Shown: piece by piece, positions 1 through 25,909 of the stretch | Layout: every line of letters begins with the position of its first letter | Position numbering within the stretch: the first letter of the stretch is position 1 | Origin: Candidatus Anderseniibacteriota bacterium | Lineage (GTDB): Bacteria; Patescibacteriota; Andersenbacteria; UBA10190 | Assembly (NCBI GenBank): GCA_040876835.1 | Contig: JBBDOX010000010.1 | Span: 8,230 to 72,229, forward strand | Reading direction: 5' to 3' | DNA length: 64,000 nt | Program-made: the position numbers and the translations under genes | The notes under the pieces: generated by a model | The model's database searches: none | What the model was told of the DNA's origin: nothing | The model's input: only the letters and a program-made list of their open reading frames with translations

Positions 1-137
1 CTGCATATGTGGTCCTTTTAGGTATTAAAGACTTCTATTTGTTGTACGCCAAATGGCTGGAGAAACGCAAATATAGTCATACACAACGCATCAGCTCCAA
101 ATTTCTTCGGAGCTGATGGGAGGGAGAGTTTATAGGG

Positions 138-1301
138 TTATTCCTGAGTTTCGGGCTCTGCTGGTTTCTCAGCTTCTTCGGCAAGTGTCGGTACTGTACT
201 TTCTTCGACTGCCTCTTTTTGCTGAGTCTGTTCCTGAGCTGCTGCTTCCGAACCAGCTTTTACGATATCAATACGCCATCCGGACAGTTTGGCTGCCAGA
301 CGAACATTTTGACCTCGTTTGCCGATTGCCAAACTTAGCTGGTCTTCGTCTACATGTGCCAAGGCTCGTTTCTCGTCTTCAAAGATATCAACTGCTACAA
401 CTCGGGCAGGCGACAGAGAGTTGGCGATGTAGTGAGCAGGATCTTCATCCCATTGAATTACATCAATTTTCTCACCGGAAAGTTCGGCAATGATTGTTTG
501 AATACGTGTGCCACGCTGGCCAATACACGCACCAACAGGATCTATGCCTTCTTCTTTAGCCCAGACGGAAATCTTTGAGCGCTCACCCGCTTCCCGGGCG
601 ATGCCCTTAATTTCTACACTGCCGGCGAAAATCTCCGGCACTTCCAGCTCAAAGAGGCGGCGTAGCATCCCCGGGTGGCTGCGGGAGAGGACAATTTCAG
701 GTCCGCGACTGGAAAGTTCAACCTTTACTACGTACACGCGAATACGCTGATTGAGACGGTAGCGCTCACCACGCACTTGTTCGCTTGGGAACAAGATGCC
801 AGTGGTACGACCAATATCAACGAAGGTCACATCGTTTTCGATTCGTTGTACGATACCAGAGATAATTTCTCCTTCTTTATCTTTATACTCTTCAAATACA
901 GCCTCACGTTCTGCCTCACGAATACGCTGGATAATAACCTGTTTGGCAGTTTGGGCTGCAACGCGGCCATAGTGAGGATCAGTTGGAGTCACTTCCTCTA
1001 CATATTCTTTACCTACTTCAGCTTCGGGATCAGTTTTTTTAGCTTCTTCAAGAAGAACCTGTGCGGCTGGATTTTCCAGATCTTCTTCGGTAGCCATCAC
1101 TGTCGTAACTTTAAAAATGCGAGCCGCCCCATCTTCTTCATTAAATTCAGCCCGAATATCCTGACCACGCTGCCCATAGTCTTTGCGGTAGGCAGCTGCT
1201 AAGGCTGCTTCAATTGTTTCAAGCACTTTTTCTTTGCTGATTCCTTTTTCGGCAACAATCTGGTCGATCGCCAAACCGAATGATCCTTGTTCTTCTGCCA
1301 T
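138..1301 (-). CDS. nusA: transcription termination/antitermination factor NusA
   Basis: 387-aa ORF. The translation shows the NusA N-domain followed by S1 and tandem KH-like segments (..GIAREAGERSKISVWAKEEGIDPVGACIGQRGTRIQ..). No SD upstream. Confidence 0.9.
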   Translation of the reverse strand: MAEEQGSFGLAIDQIVAEKGISKEKVLETIEAALAAAYRKDYGQRGQDIRAEFNEEDGAARIFKVTTVMATEEDLENPAAQVLLEEAKKTDPEAEVGKEYVEEVTPTDPHYGRVAAQTAKQVIIQRIREAEREAVFEEYKDKEGEIISGIVQRIENDVTFVDIGRTTGILFPSEQVRGERYRLNQRIRVYVVKVELSSRGPEIVLSRSHPGMLRRLFELEVPEIFAGSVEIKGIAREAGERSKISVWAKEEGIDPVGACIGQRGTRIQTIIAELSGEKIDVIQWDEDPAHYIANSLSPARVVAVDIFEDEKRALAHVDEDQLSLAIGKRGQNVRLAAKLSGWRIDIVKAGSEAAAQEQTQQKEAVEESTVPTLAEEAEKPAEPETQE

Positions 1302-1442
1302 AGTAGTATGAGGTTGAATACTGAGTTGTTATGAGAATTCCGCGGCCTGGCCGCGGAATCTGATGCCTTCACTATAGGCTATCTGGGGGATTTCTGTCAA
1401 TTATATACCCGAGAGCAGCCGGAAAGCCCATGGTCCGGTTTT

Positions 1443-4205: not shown

Positions 4206-5459
4206 TTACCGTCGTCCCTCTAGTTGAAACCTAGTGTGAGACATAGTGTGTGCAACTATAAGGAGCAGAATGAGAAAAAAAGTCTGTGTGTAATAAAAGT
4301 GATCAAGCAAAAGAAGGGGTAAAAGAGGAGCCATAAAAAGCAGAGCACTTCTATGTCGGGCGATGAACCAGGACAAGATGATAAGAATAAGTGCACCCCC
4401 TAATATGAGTCCATGCTCACTCAGAAGCAGGAATGGAACAGAGTGGACAGGAGCTATTTGCCAAGACATATACGATTCATCATGCGAGTCCAGATACTCC
4501 TTAAGAGCAGATCTATACTGACCAGGACCCACTCCCCAAAATGGATGTTCACGTATAATGTTCAATGACCACACTAGTCCAAGAGAACGATCCGAGACTG
4601 CTTTGTCTTCAGAGTCAGAAATCCGACTGACGAAAAGGGGAGAAAATACCAAGGCTATCGCAAGAAATGCTACAACAATACTGCCTAGAATTTTTTGCAG
4701 AACTTCCCGTGTTTGCCTGAGGGTTGCTGTAATGACTAACCACAGAAAGAGACCTAGAATTCCAGCCCGGGAAAAGCTTACAGCAACGGCTAATGCAAAC
4801 ATCATGATAAGCGAGAGGCCCGTAGCTGAGGTTAGTGAAACGTCCTTTGATCCGCGTACGTGGGAGAGCAGCCAGGGTACGAGGATCAGTCCGGACAAAG
4901 CCGCCCCGCTATATGGATTTGCATGAGGGTAGGGACCATACCCTCTGATCAACTTCCCATCACTATAAGAAGAGGCAAATTTCGCTACTCCTGGAAGAGC
5001 GGAGGTGAGCTGAGATTCTCCCAGATGCTGAAAATTAAAATCGTGTTGAACTATAAATTGTCCCACCCCCCACTGTGCGAAAATACTAAGGACTCCTATG
5101 AGTGTAGTCACGAGAATAATCCGCTGAGTCGGCACAAGGTTAATAAACAGGACGCCAAAGGCAATTACTTCGGTGGCGTGGAGGAGAAAGGCAGATGTGC
5201 CATGTCCGGCAATGCTCAGTAACAGAAAGAATAAAATTCCAAGGACAACAACCCGAACACTCCAGTTGCTCATGTCTCTTCCGATAGTCTTGAGTCGAGC
5301 ACCAAAAATAAACACCAGAACGAGCAGCAGTAGCCAGCCCAAGTCGTTCCATAATCGACTGACAGGCAGAAAAAACGGCAACGTTGTATTCTGAAGTGGA
5401 AGCAATCCAAGCGCAGCGACAAGGGAGAACAGAAGTAGTGGGGAGAGAGTAATCATCAC
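4206..5459 (-). CDS. O-antigen ligase / Wzy_C-family polytopic membrane protein
   Basis: 417 aa with at least 10 hydrophobic helices. Motifs EHPFWGVGPGQY and HSVPFLLLSEHGLILG resemble the conserved periplasmic loop of the WaaL/Wzy_C family. Confidence 0.5.
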   Translation of the reverse strand: MMITLSPLLLFSLVAALGLLPLQNTTLPFFLPVSRLWNDLGWLLLLVLVFIFGARLKTIGRDMSNWSVRVVVLGILFFLLLSIAGHGTSAFLLHATEVIAFGVLFINLVPTQRIILVTTLIGVLSIFAQWGVGQFIVQHDFNFQHLGESQLTSALPGVAKFASSYSDGKLIRGYGPYPHANPYSGAALSGLILVPWLLSHVRGSKDVSLTSATGLSLIMMFALAVAVSFSRAGILGLFLWLVITATLRQTREVLQKILGSIVVAFLAIALVFSPLFVSRISDSEDKAVSDRSLGLVWSLNIIREHPFWGVGPGQYRSALKEYLDSHDESYMSWQIAPVHSVPFLLLSEHGLILGGALILIILSWFIARHRSALLFMAPLLPLLLLDHFYYTQTFFLILLLIVAHTMSHTRFQLEGRR

Positions 5460-5537
5460 TAAAAGTATTTCATATTCCTTGGCAAAGAACTATTGATTGG
5501 ATAGTAATCTTGAGGTATTTTATGGAAATCTTATTCA

Positions 5538-5610
5538 GGGCTCATAGCTCAGTTGGTAGAGCGTTCCCATGGCATGGGAGAGGCCGGGAGTTCGAATCTC
5601 CCTGAGTCCA
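5538..5610 (+). tRNA. tRNA-Ala (anticodon GGC)
   Basis: Hand-folded cloverleaf. Acceptor GGGCTCA/TGAGTCC with the G3:U70 alanine identity pair. Anticodon loop AT-GGC-AT. T-arm GGGAG-TTCGAAT-CTCCC. No encoded CCA. Confidence 0.85.
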
Positions 5611-5630
5611 CAATGGGGTATCGGTCTTTG

Positions 5631-5672
5631 TGAAAATAAAAACAGCTCGTGGATTACGAGCTGTTTTTATTA
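5631..5672. terminator. bidirectional rho-independent terminator (serves tRNA-Ala on + and rpsA on -)
   Basis: Perfect 10-bp stem AACAGCTCGT / ACGAGCTGTT with loop GGATT. A-tract on the 5' side and T-tract on the 3' side. Confidence 0.65.
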
Positions 5673-5686
5673 CCTTATACTTTTAC

Positions 5687-6841
5687 CTATTTTTCTTCCT
5701 CTGAGTCTTCTTTCTTTTTAGAGTCCTTCTTTTTGTTTGTTGCTCGTAGGCTTAGTCCCAAGCGATGTTCTTTGGGTTCAAGAGAGATGATAGTGAAGGT
5801 CTTCGTTTCTCCTGCAGTCAGCAATGATGTTGGATCCTTCTGAGCCTCTTCAGGAAGTTCAGAGATATGTACGAGGCCATGAATCTGATCATCTAGTTTG
5901 ATGAATCCTCCGAAAGGTGTCACCTTTAGCACTTCCCCTTCTACCTTCTCGCCTACTTTGTACGTATCAGTTACCTTCGTCCAAGGGTCTTCTTCAAGCT
6001 GCTTAATAGAAAGTGAGATTCTCAGGCCATCATCAACGCCAATTACTTTCGCTTTCACCTTCTGCCCTACCTGAACAAAATCTCCGGGGCTATCAATTCG
6101 CTGCCAGGCGAGTTCAGAGATATGAACAAGCCCTTCAAGTTCTTGTCCACTCTCCTCGAATTTTACGAAAGCACCGAAGTCGACAATTCCACTTACTACT
6201 CCCTCTACAATTTTACCTTCGCCAAGCTTATCAAGAGTAGAACTAATCTCGTCACTGACAGCACTTTTCTCGGACACAATAAGTTTCTCTTCTTCCTGAT
6301 CCAAGTTAATAACTTTTACAGTGAATTTTTGTCCCACGTAGCTCTTCAGCTTCTCAAGAATCTTATTCTTATCCCCACCCTCTACTCGTGGATAGTGATC
6401 AGGAGCTAATTGGGAAACAGGGAGAAAGCCGGTGACCCCGCTGACGCGAACCATTAAACCACCCTTATTGGCATCCATGATCTCCGTTTCAAAAGCAGTC
6501 TCCTGGGTGAGCTTATGTTTAAGTTCCTCCCAACTACGTTCTCGGGTAGCCGAACGCAGAGATAGCTCAACATAACCATCCTCATTATCTACTTCCTGGA
6601 CAGTCGCCTGAACAATATCGCCGATTTTTGCTGTTTCAAAAGTATCAATATCGTCAAATAGCTCTCGTCCATAAATTACTCCAACACCAAGCTGGCCAAT
6701 GTCGATATACATTGCATTGCTTGTTTTTTCGATAATAGTCCCCGTTAAAATTTCTCCACGTGTTGGTACATGGAGGAGATTCTCGTGCTTTTCCAGCAGG
6801 GTTTCCATAACCGCCTGCTTTTTAGTAGTTTTTGTTGCCAT
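5687..6841 (-). CDS. rpsA: 30S ribosomal protein S1 (short form with four S1 domains)
   Basis: 384 aa containing four recognisable S1/OB repeats (..GTIIEKTSNAMYIDIG.., ..GDIVQATVQEVD.., ..KVINLDQEE.., ..VEGEVLKVTPFGGFIKL..) and an acidic lysine-rich tail. Confidence 0.85.
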   Translation of the reverse strand: MATKTTKKQAVMETLLEKHENLLHVPTRGEILTGTIIEKTSNAMYIDIGQLGVGVIYGRELFDDIDTFETAKIGDIVQATVQEVDNEDGYVELSLRSATRERSWEELKHKLTQETAFETEIMDANKGGLMVRVSGVTGFLPVSQLAPDHYPRVEGGDKNKILEKLKSYVGQKFTVKVINLDQEEEKLIVSEKSAVSDEISSTLDKLGEGKIVEGVVSGIVDFGAFVKFEESGQELEGLVHISELAWQRIDSPGDFVQVGQKVKAKVIGVDDGLRISLSIKQLEEDPWTKVTDTYKVGEKVEGEVLKVTPFGGFIKLDDQIHGLVHISELPEEAQKDPTSLLTAGETKTFTIISLEPKEHRLGLSLRATNKKKDSKKKEDSEEEK

Positions 6842-6943
6842 GAGATTAGTACTGTTTGACTAGCCGTAGTGGGTAGGAAGCTCGGATGTCTCATCCCTCT
6901 ACATTATAAAGATAGCGGGCTAGTCAAGGTTAAGGGTTAAATA

Positions 6944-7720
6944 ATGCTTTATTCCAATAAGGGGAATACCGCGTCTCACGCTATCCAAGACGGAATGATG
7001 ATGCCATACAGAATGGTTAAAGTCAAAGATATGATTTTTCATCCAACAAAGGGCTTCCGCAAAGGGATATTCTCGTATAGTATATGTCCTATGCAGATCA
7101 CCTGGCATGGCCAATACACTATAAAGATTACTTCGAAGGACGCAATCGTAGTTCTGGATCCATATTCGCCTGATGTGGGACTTCCTCCTTTTCGTGCGAA
7201 GGCTGATATTGTTTCGTTGACTAATCCAAGCGATAGTTCAATGAGCCACCTTGGTGCGATCCAGGGAGACCCTCTTATTGTAAACACTCCAGGAGAATAC
7301 TCATTCCGAGGGCTCTCTATGAATGCTCAATCGTGGTACACCGAGGACGGTGTGGAGCGGAACATTCAGCTGTGGCAGATAGAAGGTATGACACTTGTGC
7401 ACCTAGGCGCTCTTAATAGAGAGCTTACCGATAAAGAGCTGCAGGATCTCGAGCGGACCGGTATTGATATTCTACTAATTTCTGTTGGTGGTCAGAGTGG
7501 TTTAAATACAGAACAGGCTTTGAGCTTCATTACAACACTTGAGCCACGCGTTGTTATCCCTATTCACTACAAGCTGCCAAAGCTAAAGGAAGCGTTGGAT
7601 CCGGTTGACCAGTTTGCCAAAGAGATGGGCGTAAGTTCGTCACAAAAGGAAAGTAAGGTGATACTGAAGGCAAGTAAATTGCCGCAGGAGGATATGGATA
7701 CTATTATTCTCGCCGCCTAA
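6944..7720 (+). CDS. MBL-fold metal-dependent hydrolase (UPF0173-like)
   Basis: The conserved MBL-fold core starts at MQITWHGQYTIKI (an internal ATG at 7091). The upstream ATG at 6944 would add a 49-aa extension, so the true start is uncertain. Confidence 0.55.
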   Translation: MLYSNKGNTASHAIQDGMMMPYRMVKVKDMIFHPTKGFRKGIFSYSICPMQITWHGQYTIKITSKDAIVVLDPYSPDVGLPPFRAKADIVSLTNPSDSSMSHLGAIQGDPLIVNTPGEYSFRGLSMNAQSWYTEDGVERNIQLWQIEGMTLVHLGALNRELTDKELQDLERTGIDILLISVGGQSGLNTEQALSFITTLEPRVVIPIHYKLPKLKEALDPVDQFAKEMGVSSSQKESKVILKASKLPQEDMDTIILAA

Positions 7721-8094: not shown

Positions 8095-10596
8095 ATGGCC
8101 AAAAGACCCCCAGCTACTGAGACGCAAAGACCTGATCTAATTGGAAAACTTATTGATCAAGGTCTTTCTGACGAAATTCAGCGTAGCTATCTAGATTACG
8201 CCATGAGCGTTATCGTTTCTCGCGCACTACCAGATGTGCGAGACGGGATGAAGCCTGTTGCTCGCCGTATTTTGTATGTGATGTGGAGGCAGGGATTACG
8301 TTCCACTGCCAAGTTGCGCAAATCAGCGAACGTCGTCGGTGAAGTGCTGGGACGCTATCACCCGCACGGTGATCTAGCAGTCTATGACGCACTCGCACGT
8401 TTAGTCCAAGACTTCTCATTGCGCTATCCACTTATCGACGGACAGGGAAATTGGGGAAGCATTGACGGTGACTCTCCCGCAGCGATGCGATATACCGAAT
8501 CTCGTCTGGCAAAGATTGCTGATGAGATGCTATTTGATATTGAAAAGCAAACAGTTGATTTTACTGATAACTATGATGGAACTCGCCAAGAGCCAGTAGT
8601 ATTGCCCAGTCGTATCCCCCAGTTTTTATTGAATGGAACAGTGGGTATCGCTGTTGGTATGGCTACCAACGTTCCTCCGCATAACTTAACAGAGCTGTGC
8701 GAAGCATCGATACACCTTATTGAAAACCCCGACGCTACTGTTGAAGATTTGATGAAATTCGTAAAAGGACCGGACTTCCCAACCGGAGCCGCAATTTACA
8801 ATAAGCAGGAAATTCTTCAGGCATACGCGACCGGCAAAGGCAGCATTGTTATGCGAGCTCTGGCTGATATTGAAGAAGATGCTAGGGGCTCACATCGCAT
8901 TATTGTCCGCGAGATTCCGTATCTAGTAAATAAGGCTACGCTCATTACCAAGATTGCTGCTGGAGTAAAAGAGGGACGTTTAGAAGGAATTCGCGATTTA
9001 CGGGATGAGTCTGATAAAGATGGAATCCGCATACTGATTGAACTGAAGAAGGATGCCTATCCTAAAAAGGTTCTCAACCAGCTCTTCTCTGCCACCGATT
9101 TACAGAAGACGTTCCATGTCAATATGTTGGCATTAGTGGAACGTGGCCGTCAGCCTAAGGTATTAACCTTGAAAGAGGTTTTAAAGGAACATACGAATCA
9201 TCGTCAGGAAGTTATTCGTCGACGGACGCAGTTCGATCTCGACCGGGCTCTCGAACGGGCACATATATTAGAGGGACTAAAGAAAGCTCTTGATCATATC
9301 GATGAAATTATTGCCACGATAAAAAAGAGCCGCAACCGGGAAACTGCTCATGAGAACCTTCGTAAGGATTTTCGACTGTCTGATGCCCAGGCAACAGCGA
9401 TTTTAGAAATGCGATTGCAGACGCTGTCGGGTCTGGAGCGCAAAAAGGTAGAGGATGAATTAAAGGAGAAGAAGAAGCTCATTAAAGAGTTGGAAAGTAT
9501 TCTTGCTGATCCTAAAAAAGTACTGGGAATGATTAAAGATGATTATAAGTTAATGATTGATCAGTACGGAGATGAGCGACGTACTCGCGTATTTGCCCAA
9601 GCTGTTGGGGATTTTTCGCAGGAGGATTTAGTTCCTGATGATCCGACGTTGGTAACTATTACTCGTGGCGGTTACATAAAACGCTTGGCAGTGAGCACGT
9701 ACCAGGTCCAGAGACGTGGTGGTAAAGGCGTGCGTGGCATGACCACGAAAGAAGAGGATGTAGTCGATATCTTCTTGGCCACTACAACCCACAAGCAACT
9801 GCTCTTCTTTACTAACCTGGGACGGGTATTTTCAGCACGAGCCTATGAGATTCCAGCCACCGCGCGGGCTGCAAAGGGGCAGGCCGTACAGAACTTCCTG
9901 GAGATGGCCCCAAATGAAAAAGTAACGGCTATGCAGGCACTGCCAGCCAAAGAAGATGCTGGTGAGTATCTGGTAATGGCGACACGCAACGGTTTGATAA
10001 AGAAGACATCCCGGGAGGACTTCCTGAATATTCGCCGTAGCGGTTTAAAGGCTATTACAGTTAGAGAAGGAGATGCACTTGAGTGGGTGGCAGTATCTTC
10101 CGGCAAGGACGAAGTTATGCTAGTGACTAGAAATGGTCAGGCCGTGCGCTTCCCGGAAAAGGACGTACGCCCAATGGGTCGCACAGCTGCTGGTGTAATC
10201 GGGATGCGGCTTAAGAAGAGCGATGAGATTGTTGCTATGTATGTCTTTTCACCTACGGATGCCAAGAGTCTTGAAATAATGGTTGTAACCGAACAGGGGT
10301 ATGGCAAGCGCACTCCGGTTAAGGAGTATCGTACACAGAAGCGAGGCGGGTCTGGTATCAAGACTGCCAGCATTACGGCAAAAACGGGGGCTATTGTGAA
10401 TGCGGCTCTCATAAACATGGAAGAGTTGAAAGACACTGATCTGCTTATTATCTCCGAAAAAGGACAAGTTATTCGTATTGCAACCGACAGTATCAGCAAA
10501 CAGGGGCGAGCCACTCAAGGTGTTCGCGTGATGAAGGCATCGGATAAAAGCGGAAAAGTAGCGACCTTTACCACCTGGACCGAGGTAGACGAATAG
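8095..10596 (+). CDS. gyrA: DNA gyrase subunit A
   Basis: 833 aa. N-terminal breakage-reunion domain (..[26 protein letters not shown]..). GyrA-box QRRGGKG is present ([11 protein letters not shown]), which favours GyrA over ParC. Confidence 0.92.
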
Positions 10597-10619: not shown

Positions 10620-11204
10620 ATGAGTTCAGCTGAAGGCGAGCTCTGTGGTATTCTATATCCCATGACAGAGGATCGATCCTTCATTCGACCAGAAGACTTG
10701 TGGCGTCAGCTGGGACTACGAGCAGAACAGGTGGTTGTTCACTTTGGAGTAGGCGCGGGATTCTATCTCCTGCCAGCTGCCCATATTGTTGGCAAGCACG
10801 GAAAAGCTATTGGCATCGATGTATTACCAGACATGCTGGCTGAAGCAGAGAGTCGTGCCAAGCGCGAGAACGTTGAAGGGATTGTACGTATCATGCGGGC
10901 AAACCTGGAAAACGAAAAAGGTAGTTCACTGCTGGACAACACCGCAGACTGGGTACTGCTGGCAAATATTATTTATCAGTCCGATCTTCCCAAGATCTTA
11001 AAGGAAGCAGCTCGAGTTGTTGCAGCTAATGGACACGTGGTGATAGTTGGATGGGATGTAGCGGCCAGCCCCTTTGGCCCACCGGTCGGTCAGCGAATCC
11101 CTGCTCAAACAATACAAGAAACTGCCGCCGTGGCGGGTCTTCATTTGACTAAACAGTTTGCCCCCAGCCCGTATCACTACGCTCTCGTGCTATCTAAGAG
11201 CTAA
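10620..11204 (+). CDS. class I SAM-dependent methyltransferase
   Basis: 194 aa. Motif I-like VVHFGVGAGFYLL, then an acidic residue after strand 2 (IGIDVLPDM). Confidence 0.6.
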   Translation: MSSAEGELCGILYPMTEDRSFIRPEDLWRQLGLRAEQVVVHFGVGAGFYLLPAAHIVGKHGKAIGIDVLPDMLAEAESRAKRENVEGIVRIMRANLENEKGSSLLDNTADWVLLANIIYQSDLPKILKEAARVVAANGHVVIVGWDVAASPFGPPVGQRIPAQTIQETAAVAGLHLTKQFAPSPYHYALVLSKS

Positions 11205-11208
11205 AGGT

Positions 11209-12495
11209 ATGAGTGTTAGCCCTAAATCTACAGCCTTAGCGATTCTGGTTATTGTAAGTGCAGCCTCACTGTTAGGATTCGGCTGCCGTAGACCTCAGGG
11301 GGGTTTGGGAGATAGCACCTCTCAGAAACTTGTAGTGTGGGGCTTATGGCAGGAGAGTGCTGATATGGATGCTGTTGTTAAGGCTTTTCAGGAGCAGACC
11401 GGAGTTGGCGTCGAGTACAAAAAAATTGGGTCAGTAGCTACGTATGAAAAGACCCTCCTTGGTGCATTGGCCGAAGGGCGAGGTCCGGACGTATTTGTGA
11501 TCCATCATACCTGGATAGAGGGCAAGCGCGGACTATTGAGTCCTGCCCCTAGTGAAGTGATTAATCTACGGCAGTTAAAAGATGAATTTGTATCAGTTGT
11601 TGAGGAGGATGTTGTTCGCGACGGCCTCATATATGCTTTGCCGACTTCGGTAGACACGCTGGGCTTGTATTACAACCAGGATTTGTTAAGTGCTGCCGGA
11701 GTAGCCCGCCCACCACGGACCTGGCAGGATTTTCAGCGGACAATAGAAAGTATTACTAAAGTTTCGCGCCTTGGTATTATCGAGCAAAGCGGAGCAGCTA
11801 TAGGCACGGCTTCTAATGTAAACCGTGCTGGAGACATTCTTCAGCTTCTCATGATCCAGAGCGGACTTGATGTTATAGGCAGCACGGGGCGAATTGATAT
11901 TGATAATGAGGCTGGGGAAAAAGCTCTTATTTTCTACACAGATTTTTCAAATAAGTCGAAGAAAGTATATACGTGGGATCTGACACAAGATTTTTCAATT
12001 GATGCGTTTGCAGCGGGTAAAACTGCCATTATGTTGAATTACTCATATCATCTACCGACGCTAAAAGCGAAAAACCCTCGATTGAGATTCGGAATTGCTC
12101 CTATGCCGCAGATTGCTGACAGTACTCCTGTTACTTTCGCAAGCTACTGGCCGTTTGCTGTTTCTCCCTCTTCACAGGCACCACAGGCTGCCTGGCAGTT
12201 TGTGCGCTTTTTGACCAGTGCTCCCATTGCGCAAATCATTAATGACGCCCAGGGGGCGCCGCCAGCTCTCCGGGAGAGTATCGTAGCGGCTCGTTCTAAT
12301 CCAGAGCTGGGAGTATTTGCCGATCAGGCCCTTCTAGCAACCAGTTGGCCACGGGTTGATATCGTCGCCACAGATGCTATTTTTAATGCTATGATAGATG
12401 AAGTTGTGACGGGGTCGATCACGGTTAAGGATGCTCTCCGTCGCGCTCAAGATCAGCTTCAGCAGCTAATACCAAACGATGCAAATCCTTCCTAA
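11209..12495 (+). CDS. extracellular solute-binding lipoprotein (ABC SBP family 1, MalE/UgpB-like); orphan, no permease genes adjacent
   Basis: The ATG at 11209 follows the stop of the upstream gene. Lipobox LLGFGC. PDVFVIHHTWI matches the MalE-like PDIIFWAHDRFG region. The ORF track start at 11158 is a TTG within the upstream gene and was rejected. Confidence 0.7.
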   Translation: MSVSPKSTALAILVIVSAASLLGFGCRRPQGGLGDSTSQKLVVWGLWQESADMDAVVKAFQEQTGVGVEYKKIGSVATYEKTLLGALAEGRGPDVFVIHHTWIEGKRGLLSPAPSEVINLRQLKDEFVSVVEEDVVRDGLIYALPTSVDTLGLYYNQDLLSAAGVARPPRTWQDFQRTIESITKVSRLGIIEQSGAAIGTASNVNRAGDILQLLMIQSGLDVIGSTGRIDIDNEAGEKALIFYTDFSNKSKKVYTWDLTQDFSIDAFAAGKTAIMLNYSYHLPTLKAKNPRLRFGIAPMPQIADSTPVTFASYWPFAVSPSSQAPQAAWQFVRFLTSAPIAQIINDAQGAPPALRESIVAARSNPELGVFADQALLATSWPRVDIVATDAIFNAMIDEVVTGSITVKDALRRAQDQLQQLIPNDANPS

Positions 12496-12829
12496 AAACA
12501 AACACCTTCTTCTTGCTACTGCCAGTATGTGGGTCTTGCCGCTTATGGTTGCTGCTGCCGGAATAGAGAATCCTATCAAAGGAACCGAAACTATTCAGGC
12601 TGTGCTTATAAACTTCATTCAATGGCTGCTGAGACTTGTAGGTTTATTAGCTTTAGGGGCGTTGGTGTGGGGAGGCATTCGGTTTACGGTGTCGTTTGGT
12701 AACGAAGCAGCTGTTAAATCTGCCAAGCAGATCATCACGTGGGCAGTTGTTGGTTTGATAACCGTGATACTATCGTACGCGATTGTTAATATTGTAAAAC
12801 GGTTCCTAAGCGGACCAGTAGCGGGGTAG
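12479..12829 (+). CDS. VirB2/TrbC-like two-TM pilin-like small protein, paralog 1 of 8
   Basis: 116 aa. Signal peptide, short variable segment, then TM1-GG-loop(SFGNEAAVKSAKQ)-TM2 (VVGLITVILSYAIVNIV). Overlaps the SBP stop by 17 nt. Confidence 0.6.
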   Translation: MQILPKNKHLLLATASMWVLPLMVAAAGIENPIKGTETIQAVLINFIQWLLRLVGLLALGALVWGGIRFTVSFGNEAAVKSAKQIITWAVVGLITVILSYAIVNIVKRFLSGPVAG

Positions 12830-12832
12830 TAT

Positions 12833-13171
12833 ATGGCCGATCCAGTTAAACCAGGTACAAGTTTTTTTGAGGATGGTCTAACCAAGGCTAAAAATGTTGA
12901 CCCAACTCTGGGTGGTGTGGCGGACGGGATAGAGACTACGCTCCTAGAGAATATTATTAATTGGCTATTATCGATATCCGCTGTGTTAGCACTGCTGGCT
13001 CTCGTAGTTGGTGGAATGATGTATATCATCTCCTTCGGCGATGAAGCGAAGGTAAAAAAAGCAAAAAGTATTATTATTTACGCCATTACCGGTTTGATTG
13101 TTGTTGGTATTTCATTCTTCATTATCAACACAATCAAGGAGTTCTTGACGGTTAAGCCACCAAATCCATGA
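12833..13171 (+). CDS. VirB2/TrbC-like two-TM pilin-like small protein, paralog 2 of 8 (no cleavable signal peptide)
   Basis: 112 aa. Hydrophilic 45-aa N-terminus, then the conserved core ..VVGGMMYIISFGDEAKVKKAKSIIIYAITGLIVVGISFFIIN.. Confidence 0.6.
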   Translation: MADPVKPGTSFFEDGLTKAKNVDPTLGGVADGIETTLLENIINWLLSISAVLALLALVVGGMMYIISFGDEAKVKKAKSIIIYAITGLIVVGISFFIINTIKEFLTVKPPNP

Positions 13172-13587
13172 TTATCAAACACACGGCTGTGTTAATAGGA
13201 ATGGTGTCTCTTCTTTGTTTCGCTGGGCTTACTTCAGTGAGCGTGTATGCTGCCGATGGAGATGACGAAAAACCTGCCACAGGTTTTTTAAAGGGATTTG
13301 GAACCGTTAACAAAATTGCCAGCGATAGTGGTGTTCAGAAAGACCAGAACCTGAGCCAGGTCATCCTGCGTATTACAGGAATGATTGTTGCTCTTGTCAG
13401 TGTTGTGGCCCTGGCCATGGTTATCATTGGAGGGTTCCTGTACTTAATTTCTGGTGGTCAGGAGGACAAGGTAAAGAAGGCAAAAAACCTCATCTTGGCT
13501 GCTATTATTGGAATAGTTATTGTTGGTGTTGCGGGCTTAGTTGTTAACTTTGTTGTTAATATTTTTGTAGCTGCTCCTAAAGGCTAG
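13168..13587 (+). CDS. VirB2/TrbC-like two-TM pilin-like small protein, paralog 3 of 8
   Basis: 139 aa. Signal peptide (..VSVYA/ADG), about 50-aa variable ectodomain, core ..IIGGFLYLISGGQEDKVKKAKNLILAAIIGIVIVGVAGLVVNFV.. Confidence 0.6.
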   Translation: MIIKHTAVLIGMVSLLCFAGLTSVSVYAADGDDEKPATGFLKGFGTVNKIASDSGVQKDQNLSQVILRITGMIVALVSVVALAMVIIGGFLYLISGGQEDKVKKAKNLILAAIIGIVIVGVAGLVVNFVVNIFVAAPKG

Positions 13588-14006
13588 TGATCATGAATAT
13601 AAAATTTCTTAAATATATATCAGTGTTTTTAATAGCATTTTCTTTGGTTGCAGGTCTTGGTTCGGCTGCCTTCCTCTCTTCTTCAGTCGTATACGCTCAA
13701 AATAACAACAATGCCAAGAAATTTGGACCTGTTAATTGTGGTGATCTGGGTATTCAATGTGATACCGATGCGAATGAAACTAAAGTTATCGCTATCATTC
13801 AAAAAGTCATCAACGTTTTTCTGTCCATTATTGCTATCATTGCAGTGGGAATGTTGATATACGGAGGCGTGCTATTCCTGACGTCTGCGGGTGATGAAAC
13901 AAAAACCAAGCAGGCAAAAAATCTCATTTTGTATGTTGTTGTGGGGCTGATAGTCATTGGTCTTTCAGCAGTGATTGTGAACTTTACTATTAATGCGATC
14001 AGGTAG
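13587..14006 (+). CDS. VirB2/TrbC-like two-TM pilin-like small protein, paralog 4 of 8
   Basis: 139 aa. Signal peptide (..VVYA/QNN), variable region with a C-x6-C motif (CGDLGIQC), core ..IYGGVLFLTSAGDETKTKQAKNLILYVVVGLIVIGLSAVIVNF.. Confidence 0.6.
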   Translation: MIMNIKFLKYISVFLIAFSLVAGLGSAAFLSSSVVYAQNNNNAKKFGPVNCGDLGIQCDTDANETKVIAIIQKVINVFLSIIAIIAVGMLIYGGVLFLTSAGDETKTKQAKNLILYVVVGLIVIGLSAVIVNFTINAIR

Positions 14007-14010
14007 CCCT

Positions 14011-14385
14011 ATGAGTGAAAAGCAGTTATTTCGCGCGCTGCGATCAATCATGTTTGTAAGCACTGTTGGAGTGCTTACTCTGATTGTGTTCCCGGCCGCC
14101 GCCAAGCTGGATGAGGTACCTCCTGGAGCCTGTAGTACCTGGAATATTGTCTGTGGGAGCGATCTAGGAGGGGCTATCTATGGCATAATCAATACCTTCC
14201 TTGTTCTTGTTGCTGTTGTTGCGGCAGTGTTTGTTGTCATTGGCGGATTTCAGTTTATAACTTCATCGGGAGACGAAACTCAGGCAACAAAAGGTAAAAA
14301 GACTCTTTTATACGCAACAATCGGACTGATTGTCGTTGGACTGTCAGCCGCAATAGTTAACTTCGTTCTTTCGTCGTTTGGTTAA
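14011..14385 (+). CDS. VirB2/TrbC-like two-TM pilin-like small protein, paralog 5 of 8
   Basis: The ATG at 14011 lies just after the paralog-4 stop (an alternative ATG at 13993 would overlap). Signal peptide, C-x6-C (CSTWNIVC), core ..VIGGFQFITSSGDETQATKGKKTLLYATIGLIVVGLSAAIVNFV.. Confidence 0.6.
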   Translation: MSEKQLFRALRSIMFVSTVGVLTLIVFPAAAKLDEVPPGACSTWNIVCGSDLGGAIYGIINTFLVLVAVVAAVFVVIGGFQFITSSGDETQATKGKKTLLYATIGLIVVGLSAAIVNFVLSSFG

Positions 14386-14404
14386 GGAGTGGTACAATAC
14401 GGAC

Positions 14405-14752
14405 ATGCGAAAGTCTGTAGAAACATACAGCGCCCTGACTATACTATTACTTTTTGTACCCTTCTTCGTACAAGCTCAAGGCTTAACAAAAGCTGTGCCC
14501 TTTGCCGGTACAGCCCAAACTCCTCTCATTGGGGCTGTTCAGACTATTATCAATGTACTTTTGATGCTGATCGCCATTGTGGCAGCAATTTACCTGATTG
14601 TTGGCGGACTGCAGTTTATAACTTCATCGGGAGACGAAACTCAGGCAGGAAAAGGCAAGAAAAATATCCTGTATGCAGTTATCGGGCTTATTGTTGTGGG
14701 ATTGTCTGCAGCAATAGTTAACTTTGTAATTGACGCTATCGCCTTAGCCTAG
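14405..14752 (+). CDS. VirB2/TrbC-like two-TM pilin-like small protein, paralog 6 of 8
   Basis: ATG at 14405 with an AAGGAG 15 nt upstream (the track start at 14378 is a TTG). Core ..IVGGLQFITSSGDETQAGKGKKNILYAVIGLIVVGLSAAIVNFV.. Shares a 36-nt identical stretch with paralog 5. Confidence 0.6.
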   Translation: MRKSVETYSALTILLLFVPFFVQAQGLTKAVPFAGTAQTPLIGAVQTIINVLLMLIAIVAAIYLIVGGLQFITSSGDETQAGKGKKNILYAVIGLIVVGLSAAIVNFVIDAIALA

Positions 14753-14791
14753 GTGATAGTTTCTTCTCTACTACTAAGGAGGTGAGGGAGT

Positions 14792-15145
14792 ATGAAAATT
14801 AAGAATTGGTTCCAAAACAGTATTCTTCCAGCATTGGTACTAGCCGCACCTTTCCAGGCGCTGGCCGTTGGATTGACGGGTGATAATTTCGATTTTGCGG
14901 GAGACGCAGATTCTGATCTTATTACCGCTATCGAGAATATTATTAACTGGGGCTTGATGCTTGCGGCACTTGTGGCTGCAATCTTCCTCATTATCGGTGG
15001 CATTCAATACATCACCTCGCAGGGAGATGATACCAAAGCTGAAACGGCAAAAAATACCATTTTGTTCGCAGTTATTGGTCTGATTGTTATTGGCTTAGCT
15101 GCCGCTATCGTACGATTTGTCATTCAGGCAATTAACGTAGCATAA
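14792..15145 (+). CDS. VirB2/TrbC-like two-TM pilin-like small protein, paralog 7 of 8
   Basis: 117 aa. GGAGGTGAGGGAG SD upstream. Signal peptide, acidic variable segment (DNFDFAGDADSDL), core ..IIGGIQYITSQGDDTKAETAKNTILFAVIGLIVIGLAAAIVRFV.. Confidence 0.6.
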   Translation: MKIKNWFQNSILPALVLAAPFQALAVGLTGDNFDFAGDADSDLITAIENIINWGLMLAALVAAIFLIIGGIQYITSQGDDTKAETAKNTILFAVIGLIVIGLAAAIVRFVIQAINVA

Positions 15146-15163
15146 GCTTAGAACCAGAATCGA

Positions 15164-15200
15164 AAGAAAGCCGGCTCTGCAAAGACCGGCTTTCTTGTTG
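15164..15200 (+). terminator. rho-independent terminator after pilin-like paralog 7
   Basis: Perfect 11-bp stem AAGAAAGCCGG / CCGGCTTTCTT with an 11-nt loop, followed by TTGTTGTG. Confidence 0.6.
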
Positions 15201-15215
15201 TGATATGATTAACAT

Positions 15216-15434
15216 ATGAGTAACATTCCTTTCCTTGTTTACCCCATTAACGGCATTTTGCTTATTGTCGTGTTGGTAGCTGGAGTCTTGTTATTAAAAA
15301 ATGCGAGTCTTTATAACTACGCTGTTGGAGATGACGCCAAGCAGGCAGTGTTGAAATACAAGGTTCTTAAGCTCATTGTTCTGATTTCCGGAATTGCTTT
15401 TGCCGCCGCTGTTTTCAATCTTCTGACTTTATAA
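15216..15434 (+). CDS. core-only pilin-like paralog 8 (TM1-loop-TM2 module without signal peptide or variable region)
   Basis: 72 aa. ..LLIVVLVAGVLLL..YAVGDDAKQAVLKYKVLKLIVLISGIAFAAAVF.. mirrors the conserved C-terminal module of paralogs 1-7. Native AT-rich composition. Confidence 0.45.
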   Translation: MSNIPFLVYPINGILLIVVLVAGVLLLKNASLYNYAVGDDAKQAVLKYKVLKLIVLISGIAFAAAVFNLLTL

Positions 15435-15441
15435 AAAAGAA

Positions 15442-15488
15442 TCCCCCGAGCGAAGCAGGCGCACAATGGCGTTGCTTCACTCGGGGGT
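15442..15488. terminator. bidirectional GC-rich terminator hairpin at the boundary between the pilin array and the high-GC islet
   Basis: Long imperfect stem CCCCCGAGCGAAGCAGGCGC..GCGTTGCTTCACTCGGGGG. Flanked by AAAAAAGA on the 5' side and TGTTGTC on the 3' side. Convergent genes end on either side. Confidence 0.55.
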
Positions 15489-15492
15489 GTTG

Positions 15493-16527
15493 TCACCGGG
15501 GCTGTACGAGTCGAACGACTTCGACGCGTACTCCCTGCGGTAGGGCAGGGATGCCTACGGTGACTTCTGCAGCCGTTGCTCCGGCGAGCGAGCTGCCCTC
15601 AAGCTCTATCGGCAGAATTTCTGTTTCTGCCGCATAGAGCTTCTTCTCGACCACCGCGCCGTTGTCACCGAACAGGCGCAGCGTTACTGGCAGGTCGAGC
15701 GCCAGACCCCCCGCTTCCATGGGGAGGTAGTGCTTTTCCGCCGGCACCGTCTCTGTGGCCGGGTACTTTATCGTCACATGGAGTGTGACGAGGTACGCTG
15801 CCGGGTCCGGAATGAACCGGTAGCTCGCCACGCCGGCTCTTCCAGACCCGACGGTCACTTCGTCCGCGAAGCGGAGTCGCTTTGACGGGTCGCTTTCGTC
15901 CCCGTACTCAACCGTCATAGTAGCGAACGCGTCTTGGGCGTGATTCACCATTGCCTGGAAAGCAACGATGATCATGCTCCAACCTTCTACTTCCGTCCCG
16001 CGGAACCGCAAGTTCCCGGGCTCAGAAGCTCTTCTCTCCTCCCCGTTGACCCAGACCCAAAAGCTCGAGTGGTAATCGTCGAGGGTCATCGTGACCCACT
16101 TACTTACTGGCTCGAGCAGAGCCATGTTCGCTGGTGTCCCTTGGGGGGGACCCTTCTTGTTTCCCCGAACGGGGTACTGAACAGAGACCCGCGTAGGAAT
16201 CTCCGTGGGGACGAGGAGGTTCGGTGAGGTCCTCACCCGCGCCAGGCGAGTAAGCCTAGCGCTTTCCTCGGGCGAGAACTGCTGCTTGGAGGTAGGCCTT
16301 GCGTTGCTGCCGTTAGCTTGGGCAGCTGGCTCGGCGTACGCTGCGAGGAGAACTAAGGCCCCCACAGCTGCGAACACCACGCTTGCCACCAATCCCCAAC
16401 CAACGATCCCTCCCTTGCCGGAGAAGAAACTCTTGCCTCGGCTGTAGTGCATGATGGTGATAGCCGCCACCAGCGTGGTCAAGGCCGCCACCAGCAGCGC
16501 GCCGAACGTAAGTGCGAAAGTCAGCAT
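15493..16527 (-). CDS. membrane-anchored protein (two N-terminal TM helices plus a 270-aa extracytoplasmic domain) in the high-GC islet; possible SPFH partner (NfeD-like topology)
   Basis: Start re-assigned to ATG 16527, which is preceded by AAGGAG at 6-nt spacing and lies 11 nt after the SPFH stop. About 62% GC. The NfeD-like idea rests on topology only. Confidence 0.5.
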   Translation of the reverse strand: MLTFALTFGALLVAALTTLVAAITIMHYSRGKSFFSGKGGIVGWGLVASVVFAAVGALVLLAAYAEPAAQANGSNARPTSKQQFSPEESARLTRLARVRTSPNLLVPTEIPTRVSVQYPVRGNKKGPPQGTPANMALLEPVSKWVTMTLDDYHSSFWVWVNGEERRASEPGNLRFRGTEVEGWSMIIVAFQAMVNHAQDAFATMTVEYGDESDPSKRLRFADEVTVGSGRAGVASYRFIPDPAAYLVTLHVTIKYPATETVPAEKHYLPMEAGGLALDLPVTLRLFGDNGAVVEKKLYAAETEILPIELEGSSLAGATAAEVTVGIPALPQGVRVEVVRLVQPR

Positions 16528-16538
16528 GTTGGCTCCTT

Positions 16539-17576
16539 TCATGGAGTCTTCTTTGGGGGGTTGTCTTGCTTGCCCGTTGTGCGCTGACCGCGCGCCATGC
16601 GGGCGAGGGGGGCAAGAATGTCAACGACGCCATCACCGGCCGCAAAGATGTTGAACGTCTCGGCCTGTTTGAGCGCCTCGTAGCCGAGAACTTGGTCAGC
16701 GGACACGCCGGTTCTCCTGCTGATCTCCGCAACGCGGAGACCTTCCGCTTTTCCTTCGTTTCTGCGGATTCCGGGAAGAGCCAGCGCCTTCAAGTACTCC
16801 GGGTTATCCGTGAGCACCTGGGTGACGATGATGTCCACCCCGTTCCTCGACAGAACGCTTGGGCCATTAAAGGCCCGGTTGAAGTTGGTCTTGCTGCGGA
16901 CGAGGATGCCCGCTTGAGCAAAAACCGACTCTTCTTCTGCCAGCTCAAGGCCGAGCAGCCTCTCGAAATCCGCAAGGCGCCCAGCAATGTTGGTAAACTT
17001 GCTCTGGCAGGCAACCTTGCGCACGTTTTCCCAAACGACGTCCTCGGTGGCATCGAGGATCGCCCGTGTAATACACGGTTGATCCGTGTCGTACGACACC
17101 CGCTTCTCTTCTCCTGTCACGGGGTCGTAGGAACTTCGGTAAGTCGTCGGCCGCTTTTCTGCCAGATTCTTTCCAAGGCCGAGGACATTGATCCGCCGGA
17201 TAAAAAGATCCAGGCGGGCGTCCAAGCGGATGGTGATTGTCACCCGCAGGACAAGCGGAAGCATGTCCTTGTCGTAGACCTCCGTCGGCCGGTAGCGCAA
17301 CTGAATGTCCGTTGTCGGGAAGTAAACTCCCGATGCAAACGGAGGAACGAGGACCGCGATGTTGAACCCCAGGATGCCCAGGCGGGCGTCCTTATTCAAC
17401 CCGTGCTTCTCGGCATACTCTGCTGGCACGTAAACGTGCCGGTAGTCGCCGAAAATAAAGGTTGCGAGATACATATCGCTCTCCCACTGCCAGACTCCCG
17501 TGAAGAGGATGTAGGCGACGCCTACGACGAAGAGCCACAGAAACACACCGAGAAGGACCACAGACAAAAGACTCAT
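16539..17576 (-). CDS. SPFH/band-7 (stomatin/prohibitin-like) domain membrane protein in the high-GC islet
   Basis: Start re-assigned to ATG 17576 with an AAGGAG 7 nt upstream. The track ORF ran on through the tRNA-Leu gene. N-terminal TM (LLSVVLLGVFLWLFVVGVAYILF) followed by a band-7-like domain. About 62% GC. Confidence 0.5.
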   Translation of the reverse strand: MSLLSVVLLGVFLWLFVVGVAYILFTGVWQWESDMYLATFIFGDYRHVYVPAEYAEKHGLNKDARLGILGFNIAVLVPPFASGVYFPTTDIQLRYRPTEVYDKDMLPLVLRVTITIRLDARLDLFIRRINVLGLGKNLAEKRPTTYRSSYDPVTGEEKRVSYDTDQPCITRAILDATEDVVWENVRKVACQSKFTNIAGRLADFERLLGLELAEEESVFAQAGILVRSKTNFNRAFNGPSVLSRNGVDIIVTQVLTDNPEYLKALALPGIRRNEGKAEGLRVAEISRRTGVSADQVLGYEALKQAETFNIFAAGDGVVDILAPLARMARGQRTTGKQDNPPKKTP

Positions 17577-17677: not shown

Positions 17678-17714
17678 TACCATTACAGTTATAATGGCTC
17701 AACAAAGGTAAAGG

Positions 17715-17798
17715 TGCGGATGAGAGGACTTGAACCTCCACGGGCTTGCGCCCACATGGTCCTAAGCCATGCGCGTATACCAATTCCGCCACATCCGC
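17715..17798 (-). tRNA. tRNA-Leu (anticodon TAG), class II with a 15-nt variable arm
   Basis: Hand-folded. Acceptor GCGGATG/CATCCGC, 3-bp D-stem, anticodon stem CATGG/CCATG with loop CT-TAG-GA, variable arm TGGGCGCAAGCCCGT, T-loop TTCAAGT. No CCA. Confidence 0.85.
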
Positions 17799-24940: not shown

Positions 24941-25909
24941 CTAATCTTGCTGCTTGTTTTCTCCACGAGTGCCGTGGTGAAATTTTTTATGAACATCGCG
25001 TAGATGTGTATCAGTTAAGTGCGTATATACCTGAGTGGTTGTAATAGAAGCGTGTCCAAGCAACTCCTGCACCTGCCGCACGTCTGCTCCATTGCTTAAA
25101 AGGTCAGTAGCAAAAGAGTGACGGAGGGTGTGGGGAGTAATATTTTTCGTAATCCCTGCTTTAGCGGCATATTTTTTGATCAAACGCTGAGCCGTTCGAG
25201 TAGTGAGGCGTAAGTCGCTTTGATCTCCCACTCCCTTTTTGTGACGAATAAAGAGGGCGGGGTCGGTGTCTCCTCGTTTACTTATATAATCAGACAGGGC
25301 CTGCTTAGCCTGATCTGAAAGAAAAACTACCCGTATTTTGTTGCCCTTTCCACGAACAGGGATCTCGTTGCTACTTTCTCTAAGGTCGTCTCGATCAAGC
25401 TGGATTGCCTCTGAGATGCGCAATCCCGTAGAAAAAAGCGTATGTAACAAGGCTCGATCACGTAGCTGCTCTGGGGAAGTTCCTTCGGCTGATGCTAGGA
25501 GCCCATCAACTTCTTCAGGATACAACACGTCAATATCTCGTTCGGGGAGCTTGGCGAGCTCTACGCGCTCTGGTGCCAGAGAGGGGATATCACGCTTGGC
25601 AAGATATTTAAGAAACTGTCTCAGGGCAATCAGGTAGTAATTCTGGGTTGCCATTGATAATCCGTCTCCTGTAGCGCCACTCTGGTTAAGCCAGCGGCGA
25701 AAAGCTCTAACAGTATCGGGAGTTATATCTGCTACAGAAGCTATGTTTTGCCGGGAATAGAAGGCCTGAAGGTAGTGGTCGTAGTTTTCGACAGTCTTAG
25801 AAGACCGGCCTCGACCAATCTCAAGGTCTTCCAGCCAATCTGCGTGCAGTGTCTTAAGATTTCGCGACATATGGGTATAGTATACAAGCTCCTTGCCAAT
25901 ATGATACAA
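24941..25909 (-). CDS. tyrosine site-specific recombinase, XerC/XerD family
   Basis: 322 aa. C-terminal catalytic box HTLRHSFATDLLSNGADVRQVQELLGHASITTTQVYTHL (R..HxxR..Y) and an N-terminal SAM-like domain. Confidence 0.8.
   Translation of the reverse strand: MYHIGKELVYYTHMSRNLKTLHADWLEDLEIGRGRSSKTVENYDHYLQAFYSRQNIASVADITPDTVRAFRRWLNQSGATGDGLSMATQNYYLIALRQFLKYLAKRDIPSLAPERVELAKLPERDIDVLYPEEVDGLLASAEGTSPEQLRDRALLHTLFSTGLRISEAIQLDRDDLRESSNEIPVRGKGNKIRVVFLSDQAKQALSDYISKRGDTDPALFIRHKKGVGDQSDLRLTTRTAQRLIKKYAAKAGITKNITPHTLRHSFATDLLSNGADVRQVQELLGHASITTTQVYTHLTDTHLRDVHKKFHHGTRGENKQQD

Follow-up and report, generated by a model that had tools for sequence, protein, structure and literature searches.

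A tandem array of VirB2-like pilin genes downstream of a solute-binding protein gene in a Candidatus Andersenbacteria genome

Composition and layout of the array

The window analysed here, a stretch of 64,000 nucleotides from a metagenome-assembled genome (MAG) of Candidatus Andersenbacteria (Patescibacteria, also known as candidate phyla radiation, CPR), contains a chromosomal locus in which eight small open reading frames (ORFs) follow one another on one strand between positions 12479 and 15434, directly 3' of a gene for a MalE-like solute-binding protein (SBP). Seven of these ORFs, p1 to p7, belong to T4SS_pilin, a family of pilins from type IV secretion systems (T4SSs), and are VirB2-like; the eighth, orf8, is shorter and more distant. 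A first-pass annotation, made from the letters of the sequence, had described eight consecutive same-strand ORFs, the first of them overlapping the SBP stop codon, and had proposed VirB2/TrbC-like pilins in an episymbiont-like host. The array is present as described, the p1 ATG lying 17 nt inside the SBP gene, and the assignment of the contig to Patescibacteria fits the supposed type of host.

Family membership was judged by the Pfam gathering cut-offs, which are 26.6 bits for PF18895 (T4SS_pilin) and 27.9 bits for PF04956 (TrbC/VirB2). All seven pilin ORFs exceed the former with 38.5 to 44.9 bits (Table 1), and p6 passes the latter as well; the family signal is far beyond chance. For PF04956, p7 (23.9 bits) and p4 (16.9 bits) stay below the cut-off, and the Pfam profile search returned no match for p1, p2, p3 and p5; precomputed Pfam matches list this family for many close homologues. 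The same search, which the first-pass annotation had proposed as a check, gave the outcome it had predicted, with seven of seven canonical ORFs assigned to the pilin family and no holin, bacteriocin-immunity or phage family matched in Pfam (E up to 1 for the holin and immunity families), NCBIfam or PHROGs. Matches to CagC and DUF4134 were weak only. Among the NCBIfam models, NF045849 (Mbov_0395 family pilin-like conjugal transfer protein) scored 36.5 bits with p6, its cut-off being 40, and the pLS20_p028 conjugation transmembrane protein matched p2 weakly. The motifs GG, S-x-G-D-E, K and IVNF are conserved in register across the pilins. When a profile built from the seven was run against the window translated in all six frames, no additional copy emerged, and a tblastn search of p6 against plasmids gave a single, insignificant match. 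The family itself is large, with 98,543 cluster representatives at E <= 0.001.

Hydrophobicity and charge profiles resolve three hydrophobic segments in p1 and p3 to p7, namely a signal-like segment and two transmembrane segments, TM1 and TM2. The variable segment between signal and TM1, about 11-33 aa long, has a net acidic character in p3, p4, p5 and p7; in p1 and p6 it is close to neutral. The plan of signal peptide, variable segment, TM1, loop and TM2, which had been attributed to seven ORFs, is thus borne out for these six but not for p2, which has no signal peptide and begins with a 39-aa net-acidic tail ahead of TM1. Since the p2 reading frame opens one codon before its ATG, a hidden signal peptide is impossible; the p2 orthologue at the most closely related locus found, L002, likewise lacks one. 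The loop between TM1 and TM2 contains G-D-E, with lysines within and just past it. Six of the seven proteins therefore appear to have the architecture of a VirB2-type precursor (signal, two helices, short lysine-bearing loop), with signal cleavage being predicted only. An AlphaFold2 model of p6 (mean pLDDT 80, 37-sequence alignment; helices 4-24, 41-73 and 78-114) consists of a signal helix, a low-confidence or disordered linker and a long helical hairpin.

The ectodomains carry individual features. The C-x6-C loops noted in two neighbours are real; they lie in p4 and p5 and persist in the L002 orthologues, where the cysteine pair of p4 and the 'CxxWNIxCG' motif of p5 are retained. The longest and fastest-diverging ectodomain belongs to p3; this protein and its L002 orthologue share 42% identity and differ by insertions and deletions. 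The most conserved member is p7, with an acidic ectodomain, 77% identity to its L002 orthologue and a ratio of nonsynonymous to synonymous divergence (omega) of ~0.04.

The successive gaps from the SBP gene to orf8 are -17, 3, -4, -1, 4, 19, 39 and 70 nt, as computed with the NCBI starts for p5 (ATG 14011, 124 aa; the NCBI product is P0017) and p6 (ATG 14405, 115 aa). A spacing of 0-40 nt had been reported for the whole array; it holds for every gap except the last one, between p7 and orf8. This last gap contains a hairpin that none of 200 shuffled sequences equalled in stability and that a simple terminator scan did not call; the terminator-like structure may close the unit from the SBP gene to p7 and set orf8 apart. 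A strong Shine-Dalgarno sequence precedes p7 only (AAGGAGGTG, start region 14767-14791), p6 has a distant one, and none was found in the start regions inspected at gyrA, the SBP gene, p1-p5 and orf8. The scarcity of such sites, as the annotation had remarked, fits a genome poor in Shine-Dalgarno sequences and translational coupling. Upstream, gyrA and a methyltransferase gene are co-directional with the array, and the methyltransferase stop is separated from the SBP start by 4 nt, an arrangement in which transcription of the array could begin as far upstream as gyrA.

A gene of 72-74 aa corresponding to orf8 was found after every Andersenbacteria array. It encodes two helices only, with neither signal peptide nor ectodomain, it has no Pfam match, and it scored 10.5 bits (E 0.02) against the seven-pilin hidden Markov model, the best match in the window outside the array members. 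When a profile of five orf8 sequences was aligned with the pilin module, hhalign gave an in-register alignment of 68 columns with a probability of 95.5% (E 1.5e-8). We read orf8 as a divergent, core-only paralogue that probably forms a separate transcription unit.

Table 1. Positions of the array genes and adjoining features in the window.
Feature	Position	Strand	Remarks
gyrA	8095..10596	+	833-aa ORF; upstream anchor of syntenic block
Class I S-adenosylmethionine (SAM) methyltransferase	10620..11204	+	Pfam Methyltransf_31/11/25
MalE-like family-1 SBP, 428 aa	11209..12495	+	Pfam SBP_bac_1 at 3.2e-37, 129.6 bits
Pilin p1, 116 aa	12479..12829	+	PF18895 38.5 bits; first in array
Pilin p2, 112 aa	12833..13171	+	PF18895 44.9 bits
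Pilin p3, 139 aa	13168..13587	+	PF18895 42.7 bits
Pilin p4, 139 aa	13587..14006	+	PF18895 44.0 bits
Pilin p5, 130 aa from ATG 13993	13993..14385	+	PF18895 43.0 bits
Pilin p6	14378..14752	+	PF18895 40.3 bits; PF04956 TrbC 30.2 bits
Pilin p7, 117 aa	14792..15145	+	PF18895 44.0 bits
Terminator-like hairpin after p7	15164..15196	+	RNA fold -22.9 kcal/mol, z -4.36
orf8, 72 aa	15216..15434	+	Core hairpin only; no Pfam match
Strong hairpin separating orf8 from the convergent gene downstream	15443..15487	.	RNA fold -33.4 kcal/mol, z -5.2

Synteny with gyrA and divergence of the paralogues

The SBP, named 'extracellular solute-binding protein [Candidatus Andersenbacteria]' by NCBI, scores far under the cut-offs of the NCBIfam models MalE and GanS, and its nearest sequence relatives in the PDB are sugar and maltose binding proteins. 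The lipobox that the annotation had ascribed to it did not hold up: the N-terminal motif L-G-F-G-C is non-canonical, GFGC is conserved in Andersenbacteria only (window 11209-11290), and the distant orthologues in L011, L018, L025, L027 and L033 have a hydrophobic N-terminal anchor and no cysteine. The window also encodes a signal peptidase II (33882-34454). In line with the claim that the SBP lacks transport partners, neither an ABC permease nor an ATPase was found among the window ORFs of at least 120 aa, among the genes called over ~2 kb on its left-hand and ~6 kb on its right-hand side, or next to the SBP gene at any of 12 related SBP-bearing loci; some short window ORFs were annotated solely via L036.

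Related arrays were collected in a metagenome scan with two pilin motifs, derived from a four-sequence alignment, the query holding no SBP. The scan yielded 31 loci with 1-7 pilin copies each. In L011, L018, L025/L026, L027, L028, L032 and L033/L034, an SBP homologue (35-39% identity) directly precedes the pilins and shares their strand, and about half of the retrieved arrays have none (L004-L008, L014, L016, L020, L022). A gyrA homologue is found ahead of the array in L006, L011, L016, L018, L025, L026, L033, L034 and L037-L040; in most of the SBP-bearing loci of the scan for which upstream DNA is available it stands just before the SBP gene, with GyrA 54-56% identical, and L032 gave no gyrA match upstream. 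Andersenbacteria, L006, L014, L016 and L020 have the methyltransferase gene between gyrA and the array, and the order gyrA, methyltransferase, array without an SBP gene occurs at four other loci. In all Andersenbacteria loci the first pilin ATG is spaced -17 to -4 nt from the SBP stop; the spacing is 2-17 nt in L018, L025, L027 and L033, and wider in L032 (48 nt) and L011 (119 nt). Such tight spacing at this degree of divergence, in a comparison that leaves kinship among the loci uncorrected, indicates an operon under selection and not leftover synteny. Co-transcription of the SBP gene and the array, which the annotation had suggested, is strongly supported by these overlaps and tiny gaps across distant lineages. 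The searched literature contained no mention of an association between an SBP gene and a pilin array, and its tight, deeply conserved coupling beside gyrA is possibly new. The SBP is probably co-expressed with the pilins and would act at the same interface between cell and host.

The closest relative found, L002, comes from another Andersenbacteria MAG, in which GyrA is 88-89% and the SBP 76-77% identical. Gene order is the same and begins with an S1 protein, followed by gyrA, the methyltransferase, the SBP, seven pilins, orf8, two uncharacterised membrane proteins, a glycosyltransferase and ClpB. The seven pilins pair one-to-one with those of L002 at 42-77% identity and in unchanged order. 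Pairwise protein identity among p1-p7 averages 36% (range 28-56%), and the DNA of the conserved C-terminal module is 42-63% identical between paralogues and 58-73% identical to the L002 orthologues. Since each module is nearer to its L002 orthologue than to any paralogue, the paralogues are older than the split and are not undergoing homogenisation. On these grounds, gene conversion or concerted evolution is rejected as a general process; local DNA similarity is shared by p5 and p6 only, in the sole DNA repeat of the array (197 nt at 71%). It follows that the conservation of the C-terminal module at nucleotide level, as originally described, applies to p5 and p6, and elsewhere the module is conserved as protein. 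In the comparison with L002, the N-terminal part shows a nonsynonymous divergence (dN) ~1.5-4 times that of the module, and overall omega is 0.04-0.19, a rough estimate since synonymous divergence (dS) is saturated.

More distant Andersenbacteria (GyrA 74-76%) carry the same locus with four pilins in GCA_016197005.1 and GCA_001817055.1 and three in GCA_040384205.1. Copy number at the syntenic site across Andersenbacteria is accordingly 3, 4 or 7, and the ectodomains differ between species. The first gene past the SBP gene is always p1-like (best match p1 in L037, L038 and L039), and expansion of the array falls within the p4-p7 group. The cross-genome comparison that had been proposed thus found a locus that varies between species in both copy number and ectodomains. 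One part of the proposed surface variation, the interspecies differences, is therefore real; the other, fast antigenic or phase variation of a switching type, is not supported, given one-to-one orthologues, low omega and the lack of repeat machinery.

Comparison with known systems and interpretation

Patescibacteria, which live attached to other microorganisms, represent a large part of the diversity of bacteria, and the T4SS with its pilin series has proved essential in one species tested. Tandem arrays of VirB2-like pilin genes in this phylum are already published (PMC7427843; PMC10633639; PMC12102498; PMC12857230), and the locus adds no new kind of system. Small proteins with Sec signals, encoded in a conserved array of 4-6 genes beside VirB4/B6/B2, were described in Saccharibacteria and termed the 'secreted protein array' in Nanosynbacter lyticus TM7x (McLean et al., 2020; PMC7427843). 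In Ca. Southlakia epibionticum ML1, transposon sequencing identified a predicted pilin series within the T4SS cluster as essential (Wang et al., 2023; PMC10633639), and in co-cultures of Patescibacteria and methanogens the T4SS pilin genes rank with the most strongly expressed genes of unknown function (PMC10936435). Quinonero-Coronel et al. (2025; PMC12102498) defined an array as 2-11 pilin genes that are in tandem or one non-pilin gene apart and have low inter-copy identity. They reported 441 arrays of 2-11 genes (identity mean 25%, maximum 54%) and found VirB2-like pilins in 1,948 VirB4-containing assemblies, in only 1,135 of which the pilin gene was near virB4.

Seven tandem PF18895 genes with a mean identity of 36% place the locus within this definition. 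It resembles the published arrays in family (PF18895/PF04956), phylum, signal peptides, chromosomal site and copy number (7, plus orf8, within the range of 2-11), as well as in inter-copy divergence, for which the mean and maximum are 36% and 56% here and 25% and 54% in the published set. It differs from them in lying outside a virB4 cluster, within a housekeeping block of gyrA, methyltransferase, SBP gene and array, in its translational coupling to the SBP gene, and in belonging to the class Andersenbacteria, whereas arrays in the literature occur in greatest abundance in Microgenomatia and Saccharimonadia. Multi-copy virB2 genes of Bartonella and Anaplasma phagocytophilum offer a further parallel in their tandem amplification, their divergence and their proposed role in surface interaction (PMC12102498). 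Those organisms, however, are diderm intracellular pathogens of animals, and the paralogues described here are anciently fixed; their one-to-one orthology between species argues against the turnover expected of immune evasion.

We consider it probable that the locus is a core-genome operon encoding a tethered MalE-like SBP, seven old and diverged VirB2-like paralogues and a stripped-down eighth, the products of which would serve in a filament assembled by a T4SS. By analogy with VirB2 and TraA, Sec and YidC would insert the pilins so that both termini face outwards and the basic loop inwards, signal-peptide removal would reduce three hydrophobic segments to two, and the mature hairpins would be held in the membrane. 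The hydrophobic segments and the charge distribution are consistent with this topology. A T4SS of monoderm type, containing VirB4 and encoded at a distal site, would then extract the hairpins and polymerise them into a pilus-like filament or conduit, whose exterior would be coated by the variable N-terminal segments that touch the host cell. The stable set of paralogues and the conservation of each ectodomain suggest mixed or alternative filaments with distinct binding specificities and not switching.

Among the closest known systems are the conjugative pilins VirB2, TrbC and TraA of diderm T4SSs (T-pilus, RP4 and F). Pilins are stored in the membrane, trimmed from three transmembrane segments to two and then extracted (PMC6362355). 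With VirB2, TrbC and TraA the pilins of the array share a signal peptide followed by two helices and a short basic loop, a length of ~70-90 aa after signal removal and, in p6, a score above the TrbC cut-off; storage in the membrane before extraction would be the expected route here too. Unlike the diderm systems, the host is a monoderm and the locus has no VirB5, VirB7, VirB9 or VirB10 context, enzymes for cyclisation or acetylation are not in evidence, no sequence match to solved pilins was obtained, and there are seven paralogues instead of one.

The link to a T4SS comes from other loci and genomes. In L004 the pilin family lies 2.7 kb from a gene for a VirB4-like protein, whose best 120 matches are all ~90% identical and, where named, belong to Saccharibacteria only and hence do not bear on Andersenbacteria; in L008 the family has both a VirB4-like gene and a PrgI-domain protein as neighbours. 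GCA_001817055.1 has an orthologous locus of gyrA, SBP gene and four pilins, and that genome is marked 'Yes' for VirB4 in Table S1 of PMC12102498, so that absence of any secretion ATPase from the genome, a refuting condition named by the annotation, does not apply to this relative; among the ten Andersenbacteria draft genomes in the rows of that table viewed, seven are VirB4-positive.

Several observations weigh against the filament model. No VirB4, VirB6, PrgI or T4SS ATPase occurs among the scanned ORFs and called genes within ~14 kb upstream and ~55 kb downstream of the array, a search that covered the window and the Logan contigs, which reach past it by ~2 kb on one side and ~6 kb on the other, and three of the ten draft genomes viewed in Table S1 of PMC12102498 are VirB4-negative. 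The family profile found no solved pilin among PDB sequences, nor anything else at E up to 10. A signal peptide is missing from p2 and orf8, and many relatives are fused multi-module proteins or have large extra domains, which is awkward for a simple helical pilus. Moreover, a pilus has never been observed in any Patescibacterium, and a 2025 review poses its existence in these monoderms as an open question (PMC12857230).

In the main rival, these VirB2-family members form no extracellular pilus and instead act as membrane-retained small hairpin subunits of a monoderm T4SS channel or as anchors on which short extracellular segments, or large ones in relatives, are displayed, much like the pilin-like transfer proteins of conjugative elements in Gram-positive bacteria and mycoplasmas. 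In its favour, Gram-positive T4SSs are generally pilus-free (PMC10633639; PMC12857230), there are relatives with extra domains of 200-450 aa and single proteins with 2-17 fused modules, and p2 and orf8 have no signal peptide. The near-cut-off match of p6 to Mbov_0395 and the weak match of p2 to pLS20_p028 point in the same direction: the NF045849 (mycoplasma integrative and conjugative element) and NF045890 (pLS20_p028) proteins are, like the pilins here, small two-helix membrane proteins of monoderm T4SSs, but their genes sit on mobile elements that carry relaxases, while the array is chromosomal and housekeeping-linked and p6 falls below the cut-off. Set against this, the architecture is that expected of pilus-forming VirB2/TraA precursors, seven co-expressed and diverged copies are hard to explain as channel subunits, and the cited reviews lean to a pilus, though without data (PMC12857230). 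We regard retention in the membrane as a possible but rather unlikely account.

Two other explanations dispense with a T4SS. The hairpin proteins and the SBP could together serve solute uptake, for example with the hairpins as an unconventional membrane partner of a permease-less SBP. In most SBP-bearing lineages, even at SBP identities of 35-39% and a GyrA identity of ~55%, the SBP stop is -17 to +17 nt from the first pilin start, and a permease or ATPase is not nearby at any inspected locus. Yet about half of the retrieved arrays lack an SBP gene, some of these adjoin VirB4 or PrgI genes, the family is itself defined as a T4SS pilin family, and no SBP-dependent transporter is known to use hairpin subunits of this sort; we hold this explanation to be very unlikely. 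Two-helix hydrophobic proteins also draw weak matches to many membrane families, and the pilin match might have been an artefact of composition in unrelated small membrane proteins such as holins or bacteriocin-immunity proteins. The comparison of the p6 hairpin fold with solved structures was indeed non-specific and, together with the lack of a PDB match, leaves the family call to rest on Pfam profiles and gene context, not on fold. Seven independent matches above cut-off with motifs in register are nevertheless hardly an artefact, the neighbours are housekeeping genes with no phage or bacteriocin context, family members adjoin VirB4 and PrgI genes at other loci, and the profile searches in Pfam, NCBIfam and PHROGs effectively refute the holin and immunity reading, to which we attach next to no probability.

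Within the preferred reading of a T4SS-assembled filament, the role of the SBP deserves separate consideration. It is conceivable, though we think it improbable, that the SBP is a functional partner of the pilins, as a host-glycan adhesin or as a receptor for oligosaccharides from the host, acting at or through the pilus, and that the SBP-pilin operon beside gyrA represents a distinct and widespread sub-type of the patescibacterial T4SS pilus that serves to scavenge nutrients from the host; fused poly-pilins of up to 17 modules would then belong to the same unexplored biology. A functional link would provide a testable handle on the proposed role of T4SS pili in uptake, and otherwise the locus is an ordinary published feature. 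Its value lies in a comparative set of seven stable paralogues with individually conserved ectodomains, at a syntenic site that holds 3-7 copies. What it adds is modest, namely a gyrA-SBP-pilin operon that distant lineages have in common, the pattern of orthology among the paralogues, and orf8.

Additional observations at related loci and in the window

Many relatives, among them P0273, P0274, P0286, P0287 and P0303, are poly-pilins with 2-17 pilin modules behind one signal peptide, one example being a protein of 1775 aa with 17 matched stretches; the first array gene of L038 (11293-11967) is a two-module fusion. We found no mention of poly-pilin fusions in the searched literature. Long array members of 300-450 aa, in which the pilin module is joined to large extra regions, occur in L011 (8874-9827), L022 (10264-11346), L024 and L033 (9878-11230). 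In distant lineages the first pilin after the SBP bears a cysteine-rich 'C..LCD' motif ahead of TM1. In L008, a protein of 929 aa with two Walker A motifs is encoded at 4791-7580 (-), between the PrgI-domain protein, the VirB4-like gene and a six-pilin array; it has no sequence match in Pfam or the PDB and may represent a T4SS ATPase or coupling protein that has escaped recognition.

Downstream of the array, two membrane proteins without a match in Pfam or NCBIfam are encoded convergently to it (15493-16542 (-) and 16539-~17600 (-)) and are present in every Andersenbacteria locus seen. The ORF as called for the second of them, 417 aa long, overlaps tRNA-Leu (17713-17798), and its true start is therefore internal; the protein measures 345 aa in L001. 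Elsewhere in the window, two proteins of 588 aa (29275-31041) and 413 aa (31099-32340) have a proline-rich N-terminus and/or a membrane segment and gave no family match in Pfam or NCBIfam. Proximity to the replication origin, which has been reported for T4SS genes, was considered and is unsupported here. Gene orientation flips from minus to plus at ~6841-6944 and cumulative GC skew has its minimum near 6-8 kb, in a profile too short for a call; matches to the DnaA box number 12 in the window with 13.2 expected and are thus not enriched, and no origin is callable. A tyrosine recombinase gene (Phage_integrase) lies at 24941-25909 (-) and is syntenic in L037, which suggests a housekeeping enzyme of XerC/D type and not a sign of a mobile island. 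In L033, finally, an intein (Intein_splicing match) splits the ATPase domain of the FtsH-like AAA protease encoded at 3-1868 (-).

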